Below are positions 4,897 through 53,495 of a stretch of 64,000 nucleotides of DNA, piece after piece. The stretch is taken from the NCBI GenBank assembly GCA_024679065.1, contig JAGIQG010000006.1:8060001-8124000 (forward strand). Direction: 5' to 3'. Source of the DNA: Sphyrna mokarran. Taxonomy: Eukaryota. The notes under the pieces are model-generated. The model was not told where the DNA came from and did not search any database. It saw only the letters and a program-made list of their open reading frames with translations. The position numbers and the translations under genes are program-made. Position 1 is the first letter of the stretch. Every line of letters begins with the position of its first letter.

Positions 4897-5485
4897 AGAT
4901 GGGCACATGAATAGAATGGGAATGGACGGGTACAGAAAACTGATTTAAAATAGGGATCATGAGCCTTGGGAGTCCCTGGGAAGTGTGTAAATAGATGATG
5001 ATATTGATGTACTTGTTTTTATCATACAGATGCTTTGGTCCACCTTGTTGTCTAACAAGGGGCATACACATGATGGGTCGTGAGAGGGCTGCTCTTGGAT
5101 CTTTTTTCGAGAATATCCTAGTGCTTCACGTTGTTAGTGTACGCTTGACCTGGACCATTTGATGGGCAACACGACAGCTCAGTGACTATCACTGTGCTGG
5201 GCAGATACATGGATTTGGGCCTGTGTCTGTGGGAGTTTGCACATTCTCCCCGTGCTTACGTGGGTTTTCTCCAGGCACTCCGGTTTCCTTCCACACCCCA
5301 GAGATGTGCTCTTAGACTAATTGGCAAAACAAATTCTCCCTAAATTGTCTCAAATTTGGTTTTTAATACATAGATCTATAAACTTGGACAGGGATCGCAG
5401 GTAGAGTTGGGAACATCGGGGTGGCGGCACAGGCTCGTTGGGCCGAAGGGCCTGTTTCCCGTGCTGTATTGTTCTTTGTTCTTTG
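4897..5485 (+). mobile_element. CR1 family B 3' end (long structured 3'UTR + SINE-derived body + TTCTTTG tail)
   Basis: Matches the 3'UTRs attached to ORF2 at 38219-38820 and 47220-47803. Confidence 0.85.
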
Positions 5486-5564
5486 TAAAGACTTGCATTC
5501 CAGCCATTATTTTATAAATTGAGTTTATGTCTTTACATGTCCTGTTTATGAACAGAACTCCCAC

Positions 5565-5619: not shown

Positions 5620-6378
5620 AATGATCAAAAAACAAAGAACAAAGAACAAAACAGCACGGGAAACAGGCCCTTTGGCCCAAGGAGCCCGCGCCGCCACCTC
5701 GATGTTCCCACCTCTACCCGTGATCCCTGTCTATGTTTATAGATCTATGGATTAAAAACCAAATTTGAGACAATTTAGGGAGAATTTGTTTTGCCAATTA
5801 GCCTAAGAGCACATCTTGGGATGTGGGAGGAAACTGGAGCACCCGGAGAAAACCCACGCAAGCACGGGGAGAATGCGCAAACTCCCACAGACACAGGCCC
5901 AAATCCATGTATCTGCACAGCACAGCGATAGTCACTGATCTGTCGTGTTGCCCATCAAATGGTCCAGGTCAAGCGTACACTAACGACGTGAAGCACTAGG
6001 ATACTCTCAAAAAATCCAAGAGCAGCCCTCTCACAACCCATCACGTGTATGCCCCTCGTTAGACAACAAGGTGGACCAAAGCACCTGTAGGATAAAAACA
6101 AGTACATCAATATCATCATCTATTTACACACTTCCCAGGGACTCCCAAGGCTCATGATCCCTATTTTAAATCAGGTTTCTATACCTCTCCATTCTTATTC
6201 TGTTCATGAGCCCATCTAAGTATTTCTTAAATAACTCCAGAGTACCTGCCTCCACCACTTTACTTGGCAGCGCATTCCATACCCCCACCACCTTCTGTGA
6301 GAAAAAACTACCTCTAGCATCCAAATTATACCTTACCCCCCTCACCCTAAGCCCGTGACCCCTCGTGCTATTTGAGTC
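5620..6378 (-). mobile_element. CR1 family B 3' end including the last part of ORF2
   Basis: Reverse complement of 4897-5485 plus the ORF2 C-terminus. Confidence 0.88.
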
Positions 6379-6453
6379 CTGTTGGACTTTAACCGGATGT
6401 TATGAAACTTCTTACTTTGTTTACCCCAGTCCAATATTGGCATTTCCACATTA

Positions 6454-19494: not shown

Positions 19495-20068
19495 TCTGAA
19501 GATGGGAGCAGGCACGCTAGGGTTGTTTAAGGGTCTCTTGGACAGCCACATGAGCGGTCTGCAGATAGAGGGATATAGCAGGACTGTCTAAATATCTTAT
19601 TTGTTTCCACAGGCAATTCGGTCCACCTTGTTGACCAACAAGGTGCATGCATTCGGCAGGTCGTGCGAGGGCTGCTCTTGGATGTTGCTTCAGGAGTGGC
19701 CTTGTGCTTCAAATCGTTAGTGTATGCTTAAACTGGACCATCTGATGGGCAACATGACAGCTCAGAGACTATCGCTGTTGCTGTGCAGACACATAGATTT
19801 GTGCCTGTGTCTGCGGGAGTTTGCGCATTCTCCCCGTGGTTGCATGGGTTTTCTCCGGGTGCTTCGGTTTCCTCCCACATCCCAAAAATGAGCTCTTAGG
19901 CTGATTGGGTAACAAATTGTCCCTATATTGGTCCCTATATGGGAATCTTCCACAATAGGCATAGCCTAAAGTCACGGATATGTCATTAAGACGTTAGGAT
20001 GGCGGCGCGGGCTCACTGGGCCGAAGGGCCTGTTTCCCGTGCTGTGTTGCTCTTTGTTCTTGTTCTTT
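19495..20068 (+). mobile_element. Diverged CR1 family B 3' end (structured UTR + SINE body)
   Basis: Same module order as the other B copies with many substitutions, and a TTCTTTG tail. Confidence 0.85.
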
Positions 20069-20103
20069 GAATTGGATCTACCAAAATGCATTACCTCGCA
20101 TTT

Positions 20104-37852: not shown

Positions 37853-40478
37853 ACAGTAAGGAAATGGTTGTAGTTGTGGAGGGTCTTTTCTACATGGAAG
37901 TCAGTCACTAGTGGAGTGCCCCAGGGATCAGTTCTGGGACTCTTGCTGTTTGTAATGTTCATAAATGACCTGGATGAGGAAGTGGAGGGATGAGTTGGTA
38001 AGTTTGCCAACGACACAAAGGTCGGAGGTGTTGTGGATAGTTTGGAGGGATATCAAAAGTTGCAGTGTGACATAGATAGGATGCAAGACTGGGCGGAGAA
38101 GTGACAGATAGACTTCAACCCAGATAAATGTGTAGTGATCCATTTTGGCAGGTCGAATGGGATAAAGGATTATAATATCAAAGGTAAGAATCTTAGCATT
38201 GTATAGGATCAGAAGGACAAAGAACAAAGAAGAACAAAGAACAAAACAGCACGGGAAACAGGCCCTTTGGCCCAATGAGCCCGTGCCGCCACTTCGATAT
38301 TCCCACTTCTACCTGTGATCCCTGTCTATGTTTATAGATCTATGCATTAGAACAAAATTTGAGACAATTTAGGGAGCATTTGTTCTGCCTGTCAGCCTAA
38401 GAGCACAACTTTGGAATGTGGGAAGAAACCGGAGCACCCGGAGAAAACCCACGCAAGCATGGGGAGAATGCGCAAACTCCCACAGACACAGGCCCAAATC
38501 CATGTATCTGCACAGCACAACGATAGTCACTGAGCTGTCGTGTTGCCCATCAACTGGTCCAGGTCAAGTGTACACTAATGACGTGAAGCACTAGGATACT
38601 CTCGAAAAATCCAACAGCAGCCCTCTCACGACCCATCGCATGTATGCCCCTTGTTAGACAACAAGGTGGACCAAAATATCTATAGGATAAAACAAATACA
38701 TCAATATCATTGACAATTTACACACTTTCCAGAGAACTCCCAAGGGTCATGATCCCTATTTTAAATCAGTTTTCTATACCCCTCCATTCCCATTCTGTTC
38801 ATGTGCTCATCTAAGTATCTCTTAAATAACTCCAGAGTATCTGCCTCCACCACTTTACTTGGCAGCGCATTCCATACCCCCACACCCTCTGTGTGAAAAA
38901 ACTCCCTCTAGCATCCAAATTATACCTTACCCCCCTCACCCTAAGCCCGTGATCCCTCGTGCTATTTGAGTCCATCCTAGGAAACAGCTTAACCCTGTTC
39001 ACTCTATCTATACCCCTCATAATCTTGTACACCTCTATCAGATCTCCTCTAAGTCTACGTCTTTCGAAGGAAAGTAGCCCCAATTTGCTTAACATCTGCT
39101 CATAACTCAGACCTTCCATACCAGTCAGCATCCTGGTAAACCTCCTCTGCACTCTCTCCAGTGTCTCCACGTCCTTCCGGTAGTAAAGTGACCAGAACTG
39201 GATGCAGTATTCCAAATGAGTTCTAACCAATGTTTTATACAACTGCAACATTAAAGGCCAACTCTTGTACTCTATAACCCTTCCTATAAAGGCTAGCATA
39301 CTATATGCTTTCTTCACAACCTTCTCCACCTGCTCAGCCACCTTCAGAGACTTGTGCACCTGTATCCCCAGATCCCTCTGCATTTCTATACTCTTAATAG
39401 GTCTACCTTTTATCATGTACCTCCCCTCTACATTCTTTCTCCCGAAATGCATCACCTCACATTTATCAGGATTGAATTCCATCTGCCATCTGTCTGCCCA
39501 AGCTACCAGCCTATCTATGTCCTGCTGCATCGCCTGACAATGCTCCTCACTATCTGCAAGTCTAGCCATCTTTGTATCGTCTGCAAACTTGCTGATCACT
39601 CCACTTACTCCCTCTTCCAAGTCATTTATATATATTACAAATAGAAGAGATCCCAGTACCGAGCCCTGCGGCACACCACTAGTGACCGACCTCCAGCTAG
39701 AGAAACACCCTTCCACTATTACTCTCTGTCTCCTATTACCAAGCCAGTTAATTATCCATCTAGCTATCTGTCCTTGATTGATACGCTATCCATCTTGGAT
39801 AGTTTATCCTTGTGGTTCGGGTCCATAGGACTCTTAAATCGGCCTTGCAGGTGGAGAATGTGGTCAAAAAAGCATATAACAAAGTAGTCTTCATTAGGGA
39901 TTGAGTTGAGGAGTTGGGAAATAATGCTGCAGCTTTATAAGACCCTAGTCAGACCCCACTGTGCGCGGTTCTGGTCGCCTCATTACAGGACAGATGCGGA
40001 AGCTATTGAAAGAATGCAGTGGAGATTTACGAGGATGTTGCCTGGATTGGGTGGCATGCCTTATGAGGATAGGTTGAGGGAGCTAGGTCTTTTCTCCCTG
40101 GAGAGATGAAGGATGAGAGGTGACCTGATAGAGGTTTATAAAATGTTGAGAGGTAAAGATAGGGTAGATTCTGAGAGGCTATTTCCAAGGCTGACATGGT
40201 CGCTACGAGAGGACACAGGTTTAAGGTGCTGGGGAGTAGGTACAGAGGAGATGTCAGGGGTAAGTTTTTCACTCAGAGGGTGGTGGGTGAGTGGAATCGG
40301 CTGCCATTGGTGGTGGTGGAGGCAAACTCGTTGGGGGCTTTTAAGAGATTCCGGATGAGTACATGGGACTTAATGGGATTGAGGGTTATAGATAGGCCTA
40401 GTAGGTAGGGTTATGATCGGCGTAACTTGTGGCCAAAGGGCCTGTTTGTGCTGTAGTGTTCTATGTTTTATGTTCTAT
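37853..40478 (+). mobile_element. CR1 family C 3' part, split by a family B insertion (pieces 37853-38218, ~39808-40478)
   Basis: Collinear with the reverse complement of 42634-43700, with a TTCTATG tail. Confidence 0.85.
38219..39776 (-). mobile_element. CR1 family B: 301-aa RT C-terminal ORF plus full ~600-nt composite 3'UTR
   Basis: ORF 38811-39716 runs directly into the structured UTR, SINE body and TTCTTTG tail. Confidence 0.94.
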
Positions 40479-45309: not shown

Positions 45310-47803
45310 TAGGTGCAGAAAGAATAGGGTTGTTTATCTCCCTGGGTGGACTGGAAGGTACCTAGAGCTGGGGGTTCGGATGGGGAGGAATTTGTAAAAT
45401 GTGTGCTGGAGGGATATTGGAGCAGTATGTGGCTAGTCCGACTAGAGAGGGGGCTATATTGGATTTAGCTCTGAGTAATGAGCTAGAGCAGGTGGTTGAG
45501 GTTGCAGTAGGGGAACATGTGGTTAACAGTGACCACAATTCTGTCTACTTTAGAATACAGGTGGAAAAAGATACTTGTTGCCCTAAGGGGAGATTGCTAA
45601 ATTTGGGGAAGGCTAACTACAGTCGGATTAGGCAGGAACTTATGGAAACTGATTGGGAAAGGTTGTTCGATAGAAAGTGAAAATGTTGCAGGAAAGATGT
45701 ATGTAGACTCAGGGGAAGGATGGGAAAGGCAAGATTAGAAAGCTGTGGATTACTAGGGAAAGTGGGGACTTGGTTAGGAAGAAAAGAGAGGCGTATGTTA
45801 GGTCTAAACAACTGGGAACGGAGAGAGCATTGGAGGAATATAGAGAGAGTAGGAGGGAGCTCAAACGGGGAGTTAGAAGGGCAAAATGGGGACATGAAAT
45901 GGTTTTGGCCGACAGGATTAAGGAAAATCCAAAGGCTTTTTATTCCTGTGTTAGGAATAAAAGGGTGGTTAGTGGAAAAATTGGTCCTGTTAAAAACAGA
46001 GGAGGGGATCTGTGCTTAGTCCCCGAGGGAATGGGGGTGATCTTGAATGAACACTTTACGTCGGTATTCACGAAAGAGAGGGACTTGTTGACAGCTCCTG
46101 TCTCTGAGGGAGCTGTGGACCAGTTGAGGGAGATATCCATACTGAGGGAGGAAGTGTTAGAGCTTCCAGGTAGCATTAAAACTGATAAATCTCCAGGGCC
46201 TGATGGCATTTATCCCAGGCTGCTTAGGGAGGCGCGAGGTGAAATTGCTGGGCCTCTGACGCAAATCTTTGTCTCTTCTTTGGACACAGGGGAGGTCCCA
46301 GAGGACTGGAGAATAGTTAATGTCGTACCTTTGTTTAAAAAGGGTAGTAGGGATAACCCTGGAAATTATAGGCCGGTGAGTTTGACGTCAGTGGTAGGGA
46401 AGGTGTTGGAGGGGATTCTTAGAGATAGGATGTATAGGCACTTAGAGGTTGTGATCTGATTAGGGAATCGCAGCATGGATTTGTTAAGGGGAGTTCGTGC
46501 CCCTTTTTGAGGAGGTGACGAAAACGGTGGACAAAGGATGAGCCGTTGATGTCGTCTATATGGATTTCAGTAAGGCGTTTGACAAAGTCCCTCATGGGAG
46601 GTTAGTTGAAAAGGTCAAGGCTAATGGGATACAAGGACAGGTAGCTAGATGGATAAGTAACTGGCTTAGTAATAGGAGACAGCGAGTAGTAGTGCAAGGG
46701 CATTTTTCTAACTGTAGGTCGGTCACTAGTGGTGTGCCTTTATAGGAAGGGGTATAGAGTACAAGAGCTGGCATTTAATGTTGCAGTTGTATAAAACCTC
46801 ATTGCTAGACCTCATTTGGAATACTGTGTCCAATTCTGGTCGCCTTACTACCGGAAGGACGTGGAGACCCTAGAGAGAGTGCAGAGGAGATTTACCAGGA
46901 TGCTGCCTGGTAGAGAAGGACTGGATTATGTGGAAAGTTTATGTAAATTGGGGCTGTTTTCTTTAGAAAGACGGAGACTGAGAGGAGATCTAATGGAGGT
47001 GTACAAGATTATGAAGGGTATAGATAGAGTAAACAGTGGTAAGTTTTTTTTCTGGGTTGGAATCAAATATCATGAGGGGTCACAGGCTTAGGGTGAGGGC
47101 GTCAAGGTATAATTTGGATATTAGAGGGAGGTTTTTCACACAGAGGGTTGTGGGGGTATAGAACGCACTGCCAAGTAAGGTGGTGGAGGCAGGTACTCTG
47201 GAGTTATTTAAGAGATACTTAGGAACATGAGCAGAATAGGGATGGAGGGATATAGTAGACTGATATAAATGGGGATCATGAACCTTGGGATGTTCCTGTG
47301 AATTGCATAAGTTGTGTATGTTGTTGATGTATTTCTCTTTTATCCTCCAGGTACTTCAGTCCGCCTTGTTGTCTAACAAGGGGCGTACGTGCGATGGGTT
47401 GTGAGAGGGGTGCTGTTGGATTTTTTTGGGAGTAGCCTATTGCTTCACGTCGTTAGTGTACGCTTAAACTGGACCAGTTGATGGGCAACATGACAGCTCA
47501 GTGACTATCACTGTTGCTGTGCAGATACAGGGACTTGGGCCAGTATCTGTGGGAGTTTGCACATTCTCCCCATGCTTGCGTGGGTTTTCTCTGGGTTGCT
47601 CCGGTTTCCTCCCACACCCCAAAGATGTGCTCTTGGGCTGACTGGCGAAACAAATTTTCCCTAAATTGTCTCCCCAGTTTGGCTCCAATGCAAATTTCTG
47701 TAAACATAGACAAGGGTCATGGGTGGAAGTGGGAACATTAAAATGGTGGCAGGAGCTCATTGGGCCAAAGGGCCTTTTTCCTGTGCTGTGTTGTTCTTTG
47801 CTC
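45310..47803 (+). mobile_element. CR1 family B, EN-RT with internal deletions plus composite 3'UTR
   Basis: ORFs 45399-47091 and UTR modules at 47225-47803. Confidence 0.92.
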
Positions 47804-48405
47804 TTTTTCCTGTCTTGTGATTTGTAGATGGTTGACTGGCTTTGAGGAGTTAAAATTTATTTATTAATTTATTTATTTGTCGCATGTAAGGCTTATGCTA
47901 ACGCTGCATTGAAGCTATTGTAAAATACTGAATTGGGGGAATGAGTTATTTTCTGCACAGGTTTACCCATCTCTTGACTTTCCAAAGCTTGTCTACAACA
48001 CAACACCACCCTCTCGAAGGCAATTGGTGATGGGCCATAAAAATACTGTCTTCGCCATTCCATGAAAGATCAAAATGAAATTCCTGGGGTTCTCGGGAAT
48101 CGTAGCAGGAGGGACACTGACCATGCAAAGATCTATTGACTTCAGGCGGGATTTTCTTGCACTGGGGCGAGTGCAGCTGGTAAATCCTGCCCTTAATCTT
48201 CAATCTGTTATTGTGACACCGTGTTTATCTGGCTGGCCCATTTCAGTTTCTGATCAATGAGCAGAACGTCACTGAAGGGCTTTATATTCACCCGATATTA
48301 GAATTTACACTGCATGTAACTGACATCTAGTGCAGAGACACAGTACTAATATTCTGACTCAGTTTGATAAGCGTCCTTTCTTTTATTTATAATTTGGTGG
48401 ATATT

Positions 48406-51785: not shown

Positions 51786-52571
51786 GATCAGTTGCCCCAT
51801 GTGAGCATTCAGAGCCAATCTCCAATCAAGTCCGGACGCGGAAAATTTAAACTGAGTGGGATTTACAGTGGGAATGCAGGAAGAGGTGGAGGGGCAGGGG
51901 AGGAGGCTTTGATGGAAATGAGAGGGAGGTGGAATGACCTGAGACTGGGAGTGTGGAAGGAGGGGGATACAGGAGAAATGGGGAAAGAATGTGAGAGGAG
52001 TAGGAATGTCACAGGACGGGAAATGGAATTGTGGGATGGAGGGATGCAGGAAGCAAGGAAATTTGGGAGGGTGAATGCAGAGGGAGCGGGTAACGTGGAA
52101 TGAACCTCTCTAATCAACTGGCACCACTTTCATAGAATCCCGCAGTACAGAAGGAGGCCATTTGGCCCATTGAGTCTGCACCGACCACAACTTCACCTAG
52201 GTCCTATCCTCATAACTGTTCCATTCTCATAACTATCCTCATCCTGTTCCATTGGAGCAGCACGGAGAGGCAGCGATTTGGGAGAGCGAGAAGTTTGATT
52301 GATAAGTAGCTTTTTAACTTTTCTCTTTGTTTAAAACAGCGAGCGGGAGTAGTTTTTGCCGTTTTTTTTATTTAAACTAACTTGTAACCGGAAGTCGTCA
52401 CTAGGGGCTGCCGGTAGTTGTAGTTTTTCTCTCTGACTCTATAAATTGGTCCAGAGAGGAAACCCGATACTCTACACAGGTAGAGTATCCCACCCTCCCC
52501 CCTCCTCTAACCTAATAATAATAGTGTGTTTGTAGTTTTTTTTTTCTCTCCTGCAAATTAAAGTAACAGTG

Positions 52572-53495
52572 ATGGCAGTGCAGGTAGTACATTGCACCTC
52601 CTGCGGTATGTATGAGGTGAGGGACACCAGTAGTGTTTCTGCTGATTATACCTGCAGGAAGTGTGCACATTTGCAGCTCCTTGAGGATCGTGTTAAGGAG
52701 CTGGAGCTGGAATTAGAGGAGCTCAGAGTAATTCGAGAGGTTGAGGAGGATATAGGCAGGAGTAACAAAGAGATTGTAACTCCTCTAAGTGATAAGTGGG
52801 TAACTCTTAGGAGGAGGGGTAAGAAGCAATCGGGGAGACAATCCCCTGGGGCTGTTCCCCTCCAAAATAAATTTTCTGTCTTGGAGGCTACAGTTGAGGA
52901 AGAATCAACTGGAGCTGACAAAAGGGAGCAGGTCTCTGGGGGTGAGCCTGCTGAGAATGCTCAGGTGGGTGGGGGGAATAAGAGATTAGGCCTAGTTATA
53001 GGAGACTCCATAGTTAGAGGGACAGATAGGAGGGTAAATAGTAATAAACAGGACTCAGGGCTGGTGTGTTGCCTCCCAGGGCCTGGGGTCCAGGATGTTG
53101 CAGATCGGGTTTTTAGGATTCTTAAGGGTGAGGGGAGTCAGCCCCAAGTCATTGTTCATGTGGGGACACATGATGTAGGTAGGGCAAGGGAAGGGGATAT
53201 TAAACAGAAATTTATGGAGTTAGGGTGGAAGCTTAGGTCCATAACAGGCAGAGTGGTTATCTCTGGATTCTTGCCTGTGCCAAGAGATAGTTTAGAGATG
53301 AACAGAGAAAGGGATAGTTTGAACTCATGGCTGCGTGGATGGTGCAGGAGGGAGGGGTTCAGTTTCCTTAACAATTGGGACTCATTCTGGGATAGGTGGG
53401 ACCTCTTCAAGAGAGATGGTCTACACCTGAACCAGAGGGGGACTAATATCTTGGGGGGGAAATTTGCTAAGGCTATGATGGGGGCTTTAAACTGA
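52572..53495 (+). CDS. CR1 ORF1p: CxxC..CxxC zinc finger, leucine zipper, SGNH esterase
   Basis: CTSC..CRKC, LEDRVKELELELEEL, GDSIVRG, HVGTHD, DGLHLN. First ATG at 52572. Confidence 0.9.
   Translation: MAVQVVHCTSCGMYEVRDTSSVSADYTCRKCAHLQLLEDRVKELELELEELRVIREVEEDIGRSNKEIVTPLSDKWVTLRRRGKKQSGRQSPGAVPLQNKFSVLEATVEEESTGADKREQVSGGEPAENAQVGGGNKRLGLVIGDSIVRGTDRRVNSNKQDSGLVCCLPGPGVQDVADRVFRILKGEGSQPQVIVHVGTHDVGRAREGDIKQKFMELGWKLRSITGRVVISGFLPVPRDSLEMNRERDSLNSWLRGWCRREGFSFLNNWDSFWDRWDLFKRDGLHLNQRGTNILGGKFAKAMMGALN

Follow-up and report, generated by a model that had tools for sequence, protein, structure and literature searches.

Introduction

V-SINEs such as HE1, DANA and Ac1 consist of a head that derives from a tRNA, followed by a V-domain of roughly 80 nucleotides (PMC4824008, PMC6887750), and the reason for the conservation of central domains of this kind across animals is stated to be unknown (PMC4824008). 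The representative found in sharks carries the name HE1 (PMC3747384, PMC4824008) and forms a LINE/SINE pair with HER1 (PMC3747384). In PMC6887750, the capture of a V-domain by another element is described for the MITE MER6, a DNA element that spread the domain after the SINE had lost its autonomy. Sequence flow in the reverse direction, from LINE to SINE, has been described by Kojima (2018; PMC5786205), and the recombination of a SINE into a LINE has a precedent in Ingi-3_AC, since this element contains SINE-like sequence in its 5'UTR (PMC5786205).

CR1-clade LINEs with an esterase ORF1 combine this GDSL-like protein with an ORF2 that encodes endonuclease and RT, and they end in a hairpin and a microsatellite tail (PMC13343379). 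Poly(A) tails are described there as unique to Zenon within the CR1 group. A structured cis element in a LINE 3'UTR is known from ZfL2, a stringent LINE whose 3' stem-loop is bound by ORF2p (PMC4176376). Outside the non-LTR elements, the retroviral CTE and RTE offer an analogy, as long imperfect stem-loops lying beyond the last ORF of an RNA that has to escape splicing. Structured LINE 3'UTRs and captured modules are already known. Here we describe the 3'UTR of a CR1 family from Sphyrna mokarran, termed family B. Searching the literature for 3'UTR elements or ribozymes in CR1 and for embedded V-SINEs, we found no published account of this UTR; the family itself may already be catalogued in Repbase or Dfam.

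Anatomy of the long 3'UTR

The 3'UTR of family B follows an order in which the ORF2 stop is succeeded by a spacer, a pyrimidine tract ending in CAG|G, a 120-nt fold, a tRNA-derived head with a V-domain and the CR1 tail. The spacer measures about 20-190 nt and ends, in long copies, in the pyrimidine tract and CAG|G, with the acceptor-like CAG located about 7-8 nt ahead of the fold. A short linker connects the fold to the tRNA-like head and a variable linker connects the V-domain to the hairpin tail. This organization is displayed for a copy of subfamily a1 from the analysed stretch of 64,000 nucleotides, henceforth termed the window:

19502..19591, + strand: 3' end of CR1 ORF2 from a subfamily a1 copy that is truncated at its 5' side, with the stop TAA at 19589-19591 (tblastn, 89.6% to the C-terminus of the L244 ORF2)
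19592..19613, + strand: spacer that ends in a pyrimidine tract and CAG|G, together a candidate 3' splice-acceptor-like motif (AG at 19611-19612; 8/8 subfamily majorities)
19602..19754, + strand: predicted outer helix P0, pairing 19602-19613 with 19741-19754, in which the end of the tract and CAG|G would be buried by pairing to the linker and the beginning of the SINE head (MFE and centroid of 19590-19756, z -3.41)
19620..19739, + strand: 120-nt three-way-junction fold (predicted folding and subfamily comparison), with a covariance-model match at 19617-19742
19620-19625 with 19734-19739, + strand: P1, predicted closing helix of the fold
19626-19643, + strand: P2, predicted hairpin of the fold
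19644-19728, + strand: P3, predicted long arm, with its apical stem at 19669-19702
19747..19815, + strand: head of the captured V-type SINE, tRNA-derived and decayed, with 18 nt of T-arm/B box deleted (free-SINE alignment)
19816..19890, + strand: V-domain (by-eye match to published V-SINE consensuses, PMC6887750 Suppl. Data S1/S2)
20004..20069, + strand: CR1 3' tail, consisting of the GGGCCGAAGGGCC hairpin region and a (TTTGTTC)n-type repeat, of the type common to short-UTR families

An earlier note on this DNA had counted five copies of the fold in the window, and all five were recovered in an unfiltered search with a covariance model derived from 36 genomic copies, as strong matches of 128-139 bits. 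The next-best match in the window scored 14.5 bits and a sixth copy is absent. Besides the copy listed above, the model identified:

5034..5159, + strand: fold of a subfamily b copy (element at about 4897-5486)
5958..6080, - strand: fold of a subfamily b copy (element at about 5626-6379)
38553..38675, - strand: fold of a subfamily b copy that retains about 1 kb of ORF2 (element at about 38218-39776)
47355..47478, + strand: fold of a subfamily c copy (element at about 46736-47808)

About 25 kb past the right end of the window (L103:4729-5160, minus strand), exons read like those of what we take to be an SLC5 sodium:solute symporter.

The comparison with known RNA families suggested in the earlier note was carried out and returned none for the fold: Rfam gave zero matches at gathering across the window, and for three copies searched at E<=10 the matches were at chance level. 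Inspection together with Rfam led us to reject an HDV-like topology as well as 5S, Y RNA, SECIS and snoRNA boxes. When applied to 1.43 Mb of fetched loci in search of distant relatives, the covariance model returned, among the matches listed, the P2 palindrome on the opposite strand and two 7-bit matches, and none of 6 pattern matches from a metagenome pattern scan fitted the model.

Family B as a CR1-type carrier

Family B displays a CR1-type 3' hairpin, a short tandem-repeat tail and 5' truncation, and it resembles CR1-clade LINEs in its ORF2. Full-length copies of the d lineage are about 4.6 kb long, and 2 of the 20 that were fetched (L244, L256) contain an open ORF2 of 988-989 codons. The 989-residue product of L244 matches the Pfam domains RVT_1 (E 7e-34) and Exo_endo_phos (E 3e-12). 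ORF1 appears GDSL-like, with a match to Lipase_GDSL_2 (E 1.2e-6) whose 29.6 bits are below the cut-off of 32.9 and a match to OSK above its own cut-off. In the youngest lineage, d, the 3' ends L203, L204, L110 and L127 terminate in an A-run and not in (TTTGTTC)n, in contrast to the restriction of poly(A) tails to Zenon described for the CR1 group (PMC13343379).

The long 3'UTR distinguishes family B from other CR1 families. In 45 of 66 ORF2 ends contained in 364 kb, the tail motif follows 17-63 nt past the end of ORF2 and the cassette is missing, confirming that the 3'UTRs of other CR1 families are short, as had been noted for the window. The cassette is found in 9 of these 66 ends, where the tail is encountered at 417-577 nt. 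The remainder comprises 1 end with a distant match to the tail motif and no cassette and 11 ends with no detectable tail motif. Family B thus has a 3'UTR of about 420-580 nt compared to 17-63 nt to the tail motif elsewhere. Two cassette motifs found 0 matches in the 2026 CR1 consensus table of PMC13343379, a file that may be incomplete.

The terminal hairpin is located at about 20004-20045, with the fold residing about 270 nt further upstream. The role described for the ZfL2 stem-loop (PMC4176376) would fit this terminal hairpin, which is common to short-UTR families, while the fold itself is lineage-specific. Since short-UTR CR1 families thrive without the fold and share the terminal hairpin only, the fold should, by this analogy, be an accessory element that is unneeded for priming, and target priming should use the terminal hairpin.

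Subfamilies, descent and abundance

By use of diagnostic motifs, 193 distinct copies with sufficient flank were sorted into the subfamilies e1 (29), e2 (4, of which one is probably misassigned), c (29), b (47), a2 (15), a1 (23), d1 (38) and d2 (8, two atypical). These counts are no measure of abundance, because most copies came from similarity searches. For 13 natural copies, trees of the ORF2 end and of the cassette recover the same main groups, one containing a2, a1 and d and the other e1, c and b. The root of these trees is not firm (85/90), with only the local families A and C as reference. As judged from the two trees, the cassette descends vertically together with ORF2.

In 764 kb fetched by place, a sample that leans to repeat-rich contigs, we found 34 family-B 3' ends, 27 of which reach the fold, and 200 kb of evenly spaced stretches contained 2 folds. 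Together, these numbers suggest that the genome holds tens of thousands of family-B copies or more. Among the 34 ends, 6 are truncated at -35 to +58 of the fold, in addition to one that coincides with the edge of a locus, and the interval from +60 to +310 contains 1. This clustering, which involves small numbers, is possibly an effect of the structure on reverse transcription. Two rearranged copies were observed: at L149:1100-1700, the fold region of d1 is found in tandem and inverted partial copies, and L315 contains a c-type copy with an internal deletion, in which the end of ORF1 is joined to the linker preceding the tail, apparently at a short shared sequence and not at the acceptor.

Stability and evolution of the fold

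The copy at 19620 has a minimum free energy of -52.2 kcal/mol (z -4.89), with 0 of 200 shuffles being equally stable, and its MFE structure contains the helices that had been named in the earlier note. For the five copies in the window, z ranges from -1.9 to -4.9 in sense and from +0.2 to -2.6 in antisense. The majorities of all eight subfamilies are predicted to fold alike, with z of -2.0 to -6.7 in sense and 0 to -3.2 in antisense, and the lower sense values in the eight subfamilies support the proposal of a sense-strand structured RNA in the 3'UTR of this CR1 family.

The evolution of the fold was investigated in a random-placement test, in which the substitutions of a branch were reassigned among sites with the same base and the stability of the descendant was compared, with extant majorities treated as ancestors. 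Simulations as stable as the real descendant were rare on the branches e1 to c (0/400), e1 to a2 (0/400), a2 to a1 (5/400), a1 to d1 (1/400) and d1 to d2 (5/400), and were frequent on the branch c to b, where the result is not significant (112/400). With z <= -2.5 as the threshold, the fold is spared by substitutions on 5 of the 6 branches, compared to 4 of 32 ORF2 control windows. The test is anti-conservative, since control windows sometimes pass, with 5 of 32 reaching <=1/100 (windows with fewer than 4 changes being dropped). In antisense, the values are low as well on e1 to c (2/200) and d1 to d2 (5/200) and not low on e1 to a2, a2 to a1 and a1 to d1 (52, 25 and 33 of 200).

The divergence of paired sites between e1 and the subfamilies c, b and a2 amounts to 0.04-0.09 compared to 0.24-0.38 at fourfold sites of ORF2. 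On the younger branches, the element outpaces the fourfold sites (a1 to d1, 0.16 vs 0.10; d1 to d2, 0.09 vs 0.05) with the fold being retained. Stepwise compensations are found at the pairs 33:101 (C-G to U-G to U-A), 39:93 (G-C to mismatch to A-U), 47:85 (C-G to A-U) and 54:79 (U.U to U-A, U-G or A-U). The G-U intermediates point to pairing at the level of RNA rather than DNA. Among 21 natural copies, pairing holds for 90.8% of cells and both sides have changed in these four pairs, a number that does not exceed that of slid controls (1-5) or of shuffles (291/500). The paired cells and the covariation score do exceed the controls, with the structure being derived from the same subfamilies.

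The earlier description of the element as covarying is not borne out by the window, since 0 of 45 predicted pairs changed on both sides among the five copies, and strict covariation is modest genome-wide. A pair at 47383 that had been described as G-C, in place of A-U in the 19620 copy, turned out to be mostly an A.C mismatch in e, c and b and A-U in a and d. At this position, 40 of 47 b copies contain AC, and the G is found in 2 of 13 aligned c-type copies and hence constitutes a copy-level variant. Subfamily d1 has a shortened P2 and d2 has lost it altogether (6 similar copies: L110, L150-L154), and the hairpin is dispensable because this young subfamily amplified without it. A pseudoknot formed by the P2 loop is not conserved. 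In summary, the modelled helices P1 and P3 are likely to have evolved in a structure-sparing manner, with two-sided changes no more numerous than in controls. The claim that the RNA is selected agrees with the sparing of the fold on 5 of 6 branches and with a divergence of paired sites below that of fourfold sites in the older splits, and the element in the 3'UTR of family B is real and probably selected.

A captured V-SINE

Downstream of the fold, the 3'UTR contains a V-SINE module, with a tRNA-derived head followed by a V-domain of roughly 80 nt. From GGGC onward, head and V-domain align with the majority of free SINEs of the genome, derived from 90 aligned V-domain matches outside the fold context (117 found, mostly free copies), and they match published V-SINE consensuses by eye (PMC6887750 supplement). 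The upstream flanks of free copies share nothing and the 120-nt fold is absent from them. On alignment, the long UTR apart from the fold is a captured V-SINE. We take this SINE to be HE1-like, and the repeat content of the DNA suggests a cartilaginous fish. The V-SINE, like the acceptor-like motif and the predicted helix P0, had gone unnoticed in the earlier note.

The module shares its order of head and V-domain with V-SINEs and differs from them in residing inside the 3'UTR of an autonomous LINE, in a B box that degenerated and was then deleted, and in the fold located upstream. Subfamily e1 retains the T-arm with a degenerate B box, and the other seven subfamilies lack 18 nt. ARAGORN detected a tRNA in 0 of 5 loci. 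As an independent element the module is not recognizable, with its B box degenerate or its T-arm deleted and its 5' ends scattering into ORF2. Like MER6 (PMC6887750), family B spreads a V-domain by capture after the autonomy of the SINE was lost. MER6 is a DNA element, whereas the carrier in family B passes through RNA in each cycle, with the V-domain being conserved along the master lineage.

Between subfamilies, the V-domain diverges by 0.01-0.10 compared to up to 0.38 at fourfold sites, and as judged from these values it is conserved well below synonymous-site divergence despite a dead Pol III promoter. In head and V-domain, changes spare the predicted structure, with 0, 8, 1 and 0 of 60 simulations equalling the real sequence. 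The V-domain carries lineage-specific letters that are absent from free SINEs, and the linker between V-domain and tail is barely alignable. Lineage-specific letters, low divergence and a barely alignable linker together speak for selection acting on the LINE RNA and against a recent exchange with free copies.

The acceptor-like motif and splicing

The sequence preceding the fold has the features of a 3' splice site, a pyrimidine tract and YAG|G. CAG|G is kept in 8/8 subfamily majorities, and the tract contains 74-88% pyrimidines in seven subfamilies (d2 left out), though its letters and the spacer length differ; the tract of d consists of a U-run. We ruled out a reading frame downstream of the acceptor, since frames differ by subfamily and the length of the U-run varies. 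In 7 of 8 subfamilies, the CAG is predicted to pair with a YUG just past P1 with probabilities of 0.3-1.0, compared to 0 in b, where a different predicted hairpin buries the CAG. In the window copy, P0 spans 12 predicted pairs and covers the end of the tract. P0 is weak compared to 3'-shuffled controls, being equalled in 1-7 of 40 trials and in b in 16 of 40, and we treat it as a lead only, because in longer folds the partner of the CAG varies by subfamily. A long-range pairing of CACAGG with CCKGUR proposed by eye was not favoured in partition-function folds.

Donor-like sites are found in the 5'UTR, as AAG|GTAGGT in one e1 copy, GCG|GTGAGT in d and a weak AAG|GTGTTG in c, and after ORF1, as GTAAGT in c copies and one a-like copy and GTAACA in d. 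Close to the 5'UTR donor and ahead of the ORF1 start lie a tract and an AG that could serve it, and in a simple scoring with donor frequencies other sites in ORF2 rank as high as the donor candidates. Several features of 5' regions were observed alongside. Immediately ahead of the ORF1 start, an e1 copy (L209:3130-3270) has a candidate intron in its 5'UTR, which measures about 70 nt and runs from GTAGGT through a pyrimidine tract to CAG. The 5' region and ORF1 start at 52360-52790 of the window, which belong to another CR1 type, show a TATA-like box and a donor-like CAG|GTAGAG. Some 150 nt into the 5'UTR of the d lineage (L245:190-560; L285, L287, L269) there is an internal TATA box, and tandem monomers of about 190 nt are suggested by some copies and by one contig.

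Searches of the genome for spliced integrated copies gave 0 matches for three exact junction patterns, a search with no positive control. Exon-only matches were unspliced in 30/30 cases, as were matches to the 5'UTR (30/30) with a query that included 10 intron bases. In public data, consisting of 7 listed runs of assembled contigs whose RNA status is guessed or which are metatranscriptomes, and which convey neither strand, level nor ends, bins of the cassette are covered in two coded organisms. A joint between donor and acceptor was not encountered among 15 of 36 joints listed from four contig runs.

Discussion

As our preferred, if tentative, reading, for which the odds are still somewhat short of even, we propose that the fold acts in cis on the nuclear fate of the element's own sense RNA, so that the genomic RNA escapes splicing and remains stable. 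The closing helices P0 and P1 would hold the acceptor shut, and the long arm P3 would recruit a host factor through which the full-length RNA stays unspliced and stable and can be exported. The retention of the predicted fold in all eight subfamilies, the donor-like sites upstream and the predicted pairing of the CAG in P0 in 7 of 8 subfamilies are in favour of this reading. Both the clamp on the splice site and the protein partner are what we infer from the post-transcriptional elements of simple retroviruses. In family B, the host is a non-LTR element and the likeness to CTE and RTE involves no match of sequence or motif. Binding of NXF1 or RBM15 and export of intron-retaining RNA are the marks of a retroviral-type export element. 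With an acceptor held shut, the absence of spliced integrated copies would be expected. The clamp is weakened by the argument that loss of the AG would silence the acceptor more simply, and the CAG may be conserved only for pairing. Masking of the acceptor would also leave the long arm unexplained. Further points against the clamp are that the 5'UTR donor has an acceptor nearby and that a donor-like site is also found in the 5'UTR of another CR1 type.

If the acceptor motif were incidental and its CAG kept for P0, the fold, the hairpins of the tRNA head and the V-domain could form a generic platform that protects or packages the RNA. The structure-sparing changes and low divergence of head and V-domain would fit such a role, as would the lack of splicing in junction patterns and in the contig joints listed, but the pyrimidine tract, its letters altered, persisted through large deletions of the spacer and turned into a pure U-run in d, the lineage with a weaker distal part of P0, and we regard this explanation as rather unlikely. 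A lower likelihood is assigned to a neutral passenger, which would be host or repeat sequence captured together with the SINE, stable by chance and with stems perfected by hairpin-templated mutation bias. The small number of two-sided pairs, the loss of P2 in d2, the control windows that sometimes pass the placement test and the fact that the region was chosen for its folding are all compatible with this view. It is at odds with a divergence below that of fourfold sites in a segment whose flanking spacers are both barely alignable, with the sparing of the fold on 5/6 branches vs 4/32 controls, and with the many changes that create G-U pairs, while the antisense fold is not improved on the branches e1 to a2, a2 to a1 and a1 to d1.

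The same acceptor could also serve a regulated splice switch, in which a donor after ORF1 or in the 5'UTR joins the acceptor at a low rate tuned by the fold. ORF2 or the whole coding region would then be a regulated intron, and an ORF1-only mRNA or a short non-coding RNA containing the V-domain would be made beside the genomic RNA. The conserved acceptor directly after the ORF2 stop and the GTAAGT kept in the otherwise variable region after ORF1 (c copies and one a-like copy) are in line with this mechanism, for which the GAG-only RNA of Ty1/Copia provides a precedent (PMC5580714). Yet, the three exact junction patterns were searched in vain, exon-only matches were all unspliced, no such joint is among the 15 of 36 listed, the site after ORF1 is GTAACA in d, and a spliced RNA bearing the tail should be mobilised in trans, and we consider this switch improbable, to about the same degree as the passenger. 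If it were true, family B would follow a Copia-like expression strategy, for which we found no description in CR1, and the V-domain would gain a cis function in retrotransposition. The 85-nt arm, with about 35 pairs, might instead be a substrate resembling a pri-miRNA or bound by a dsRNA-binding protein and processed into a small RNA, and the sole Rfam match is a weak miRNA hairpin (E 1.1). Both of its arms changed in sequence among subfamilies, however, its base is located in a junction and cleavage would destroy the template for transposition, which makes this very unlikely. The earlier suggestion of an unrecognised self-cleaving ribozyme, prompted by a compact multi-helix fold in a retroelement, finds no support and is barely credible: the Rfam matches are confined to chance level at E<=10 with none at gathering, the hammerhead core CUGANGA is absent from 8/8 majorities, junction nucleotides and P2 vary or are deleted, and self-cleavage is implausible because it would separate the ORFs from the tail that priming requires.

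Family B is an autonomous LINE with natural open-ORF2 copies (L244, L256), in which the V-domain, the fold and the acceptor could be tested singly. For the host, each long enough copy that lands in an intron plants an acceptor-like motif together with a stable hairpin.
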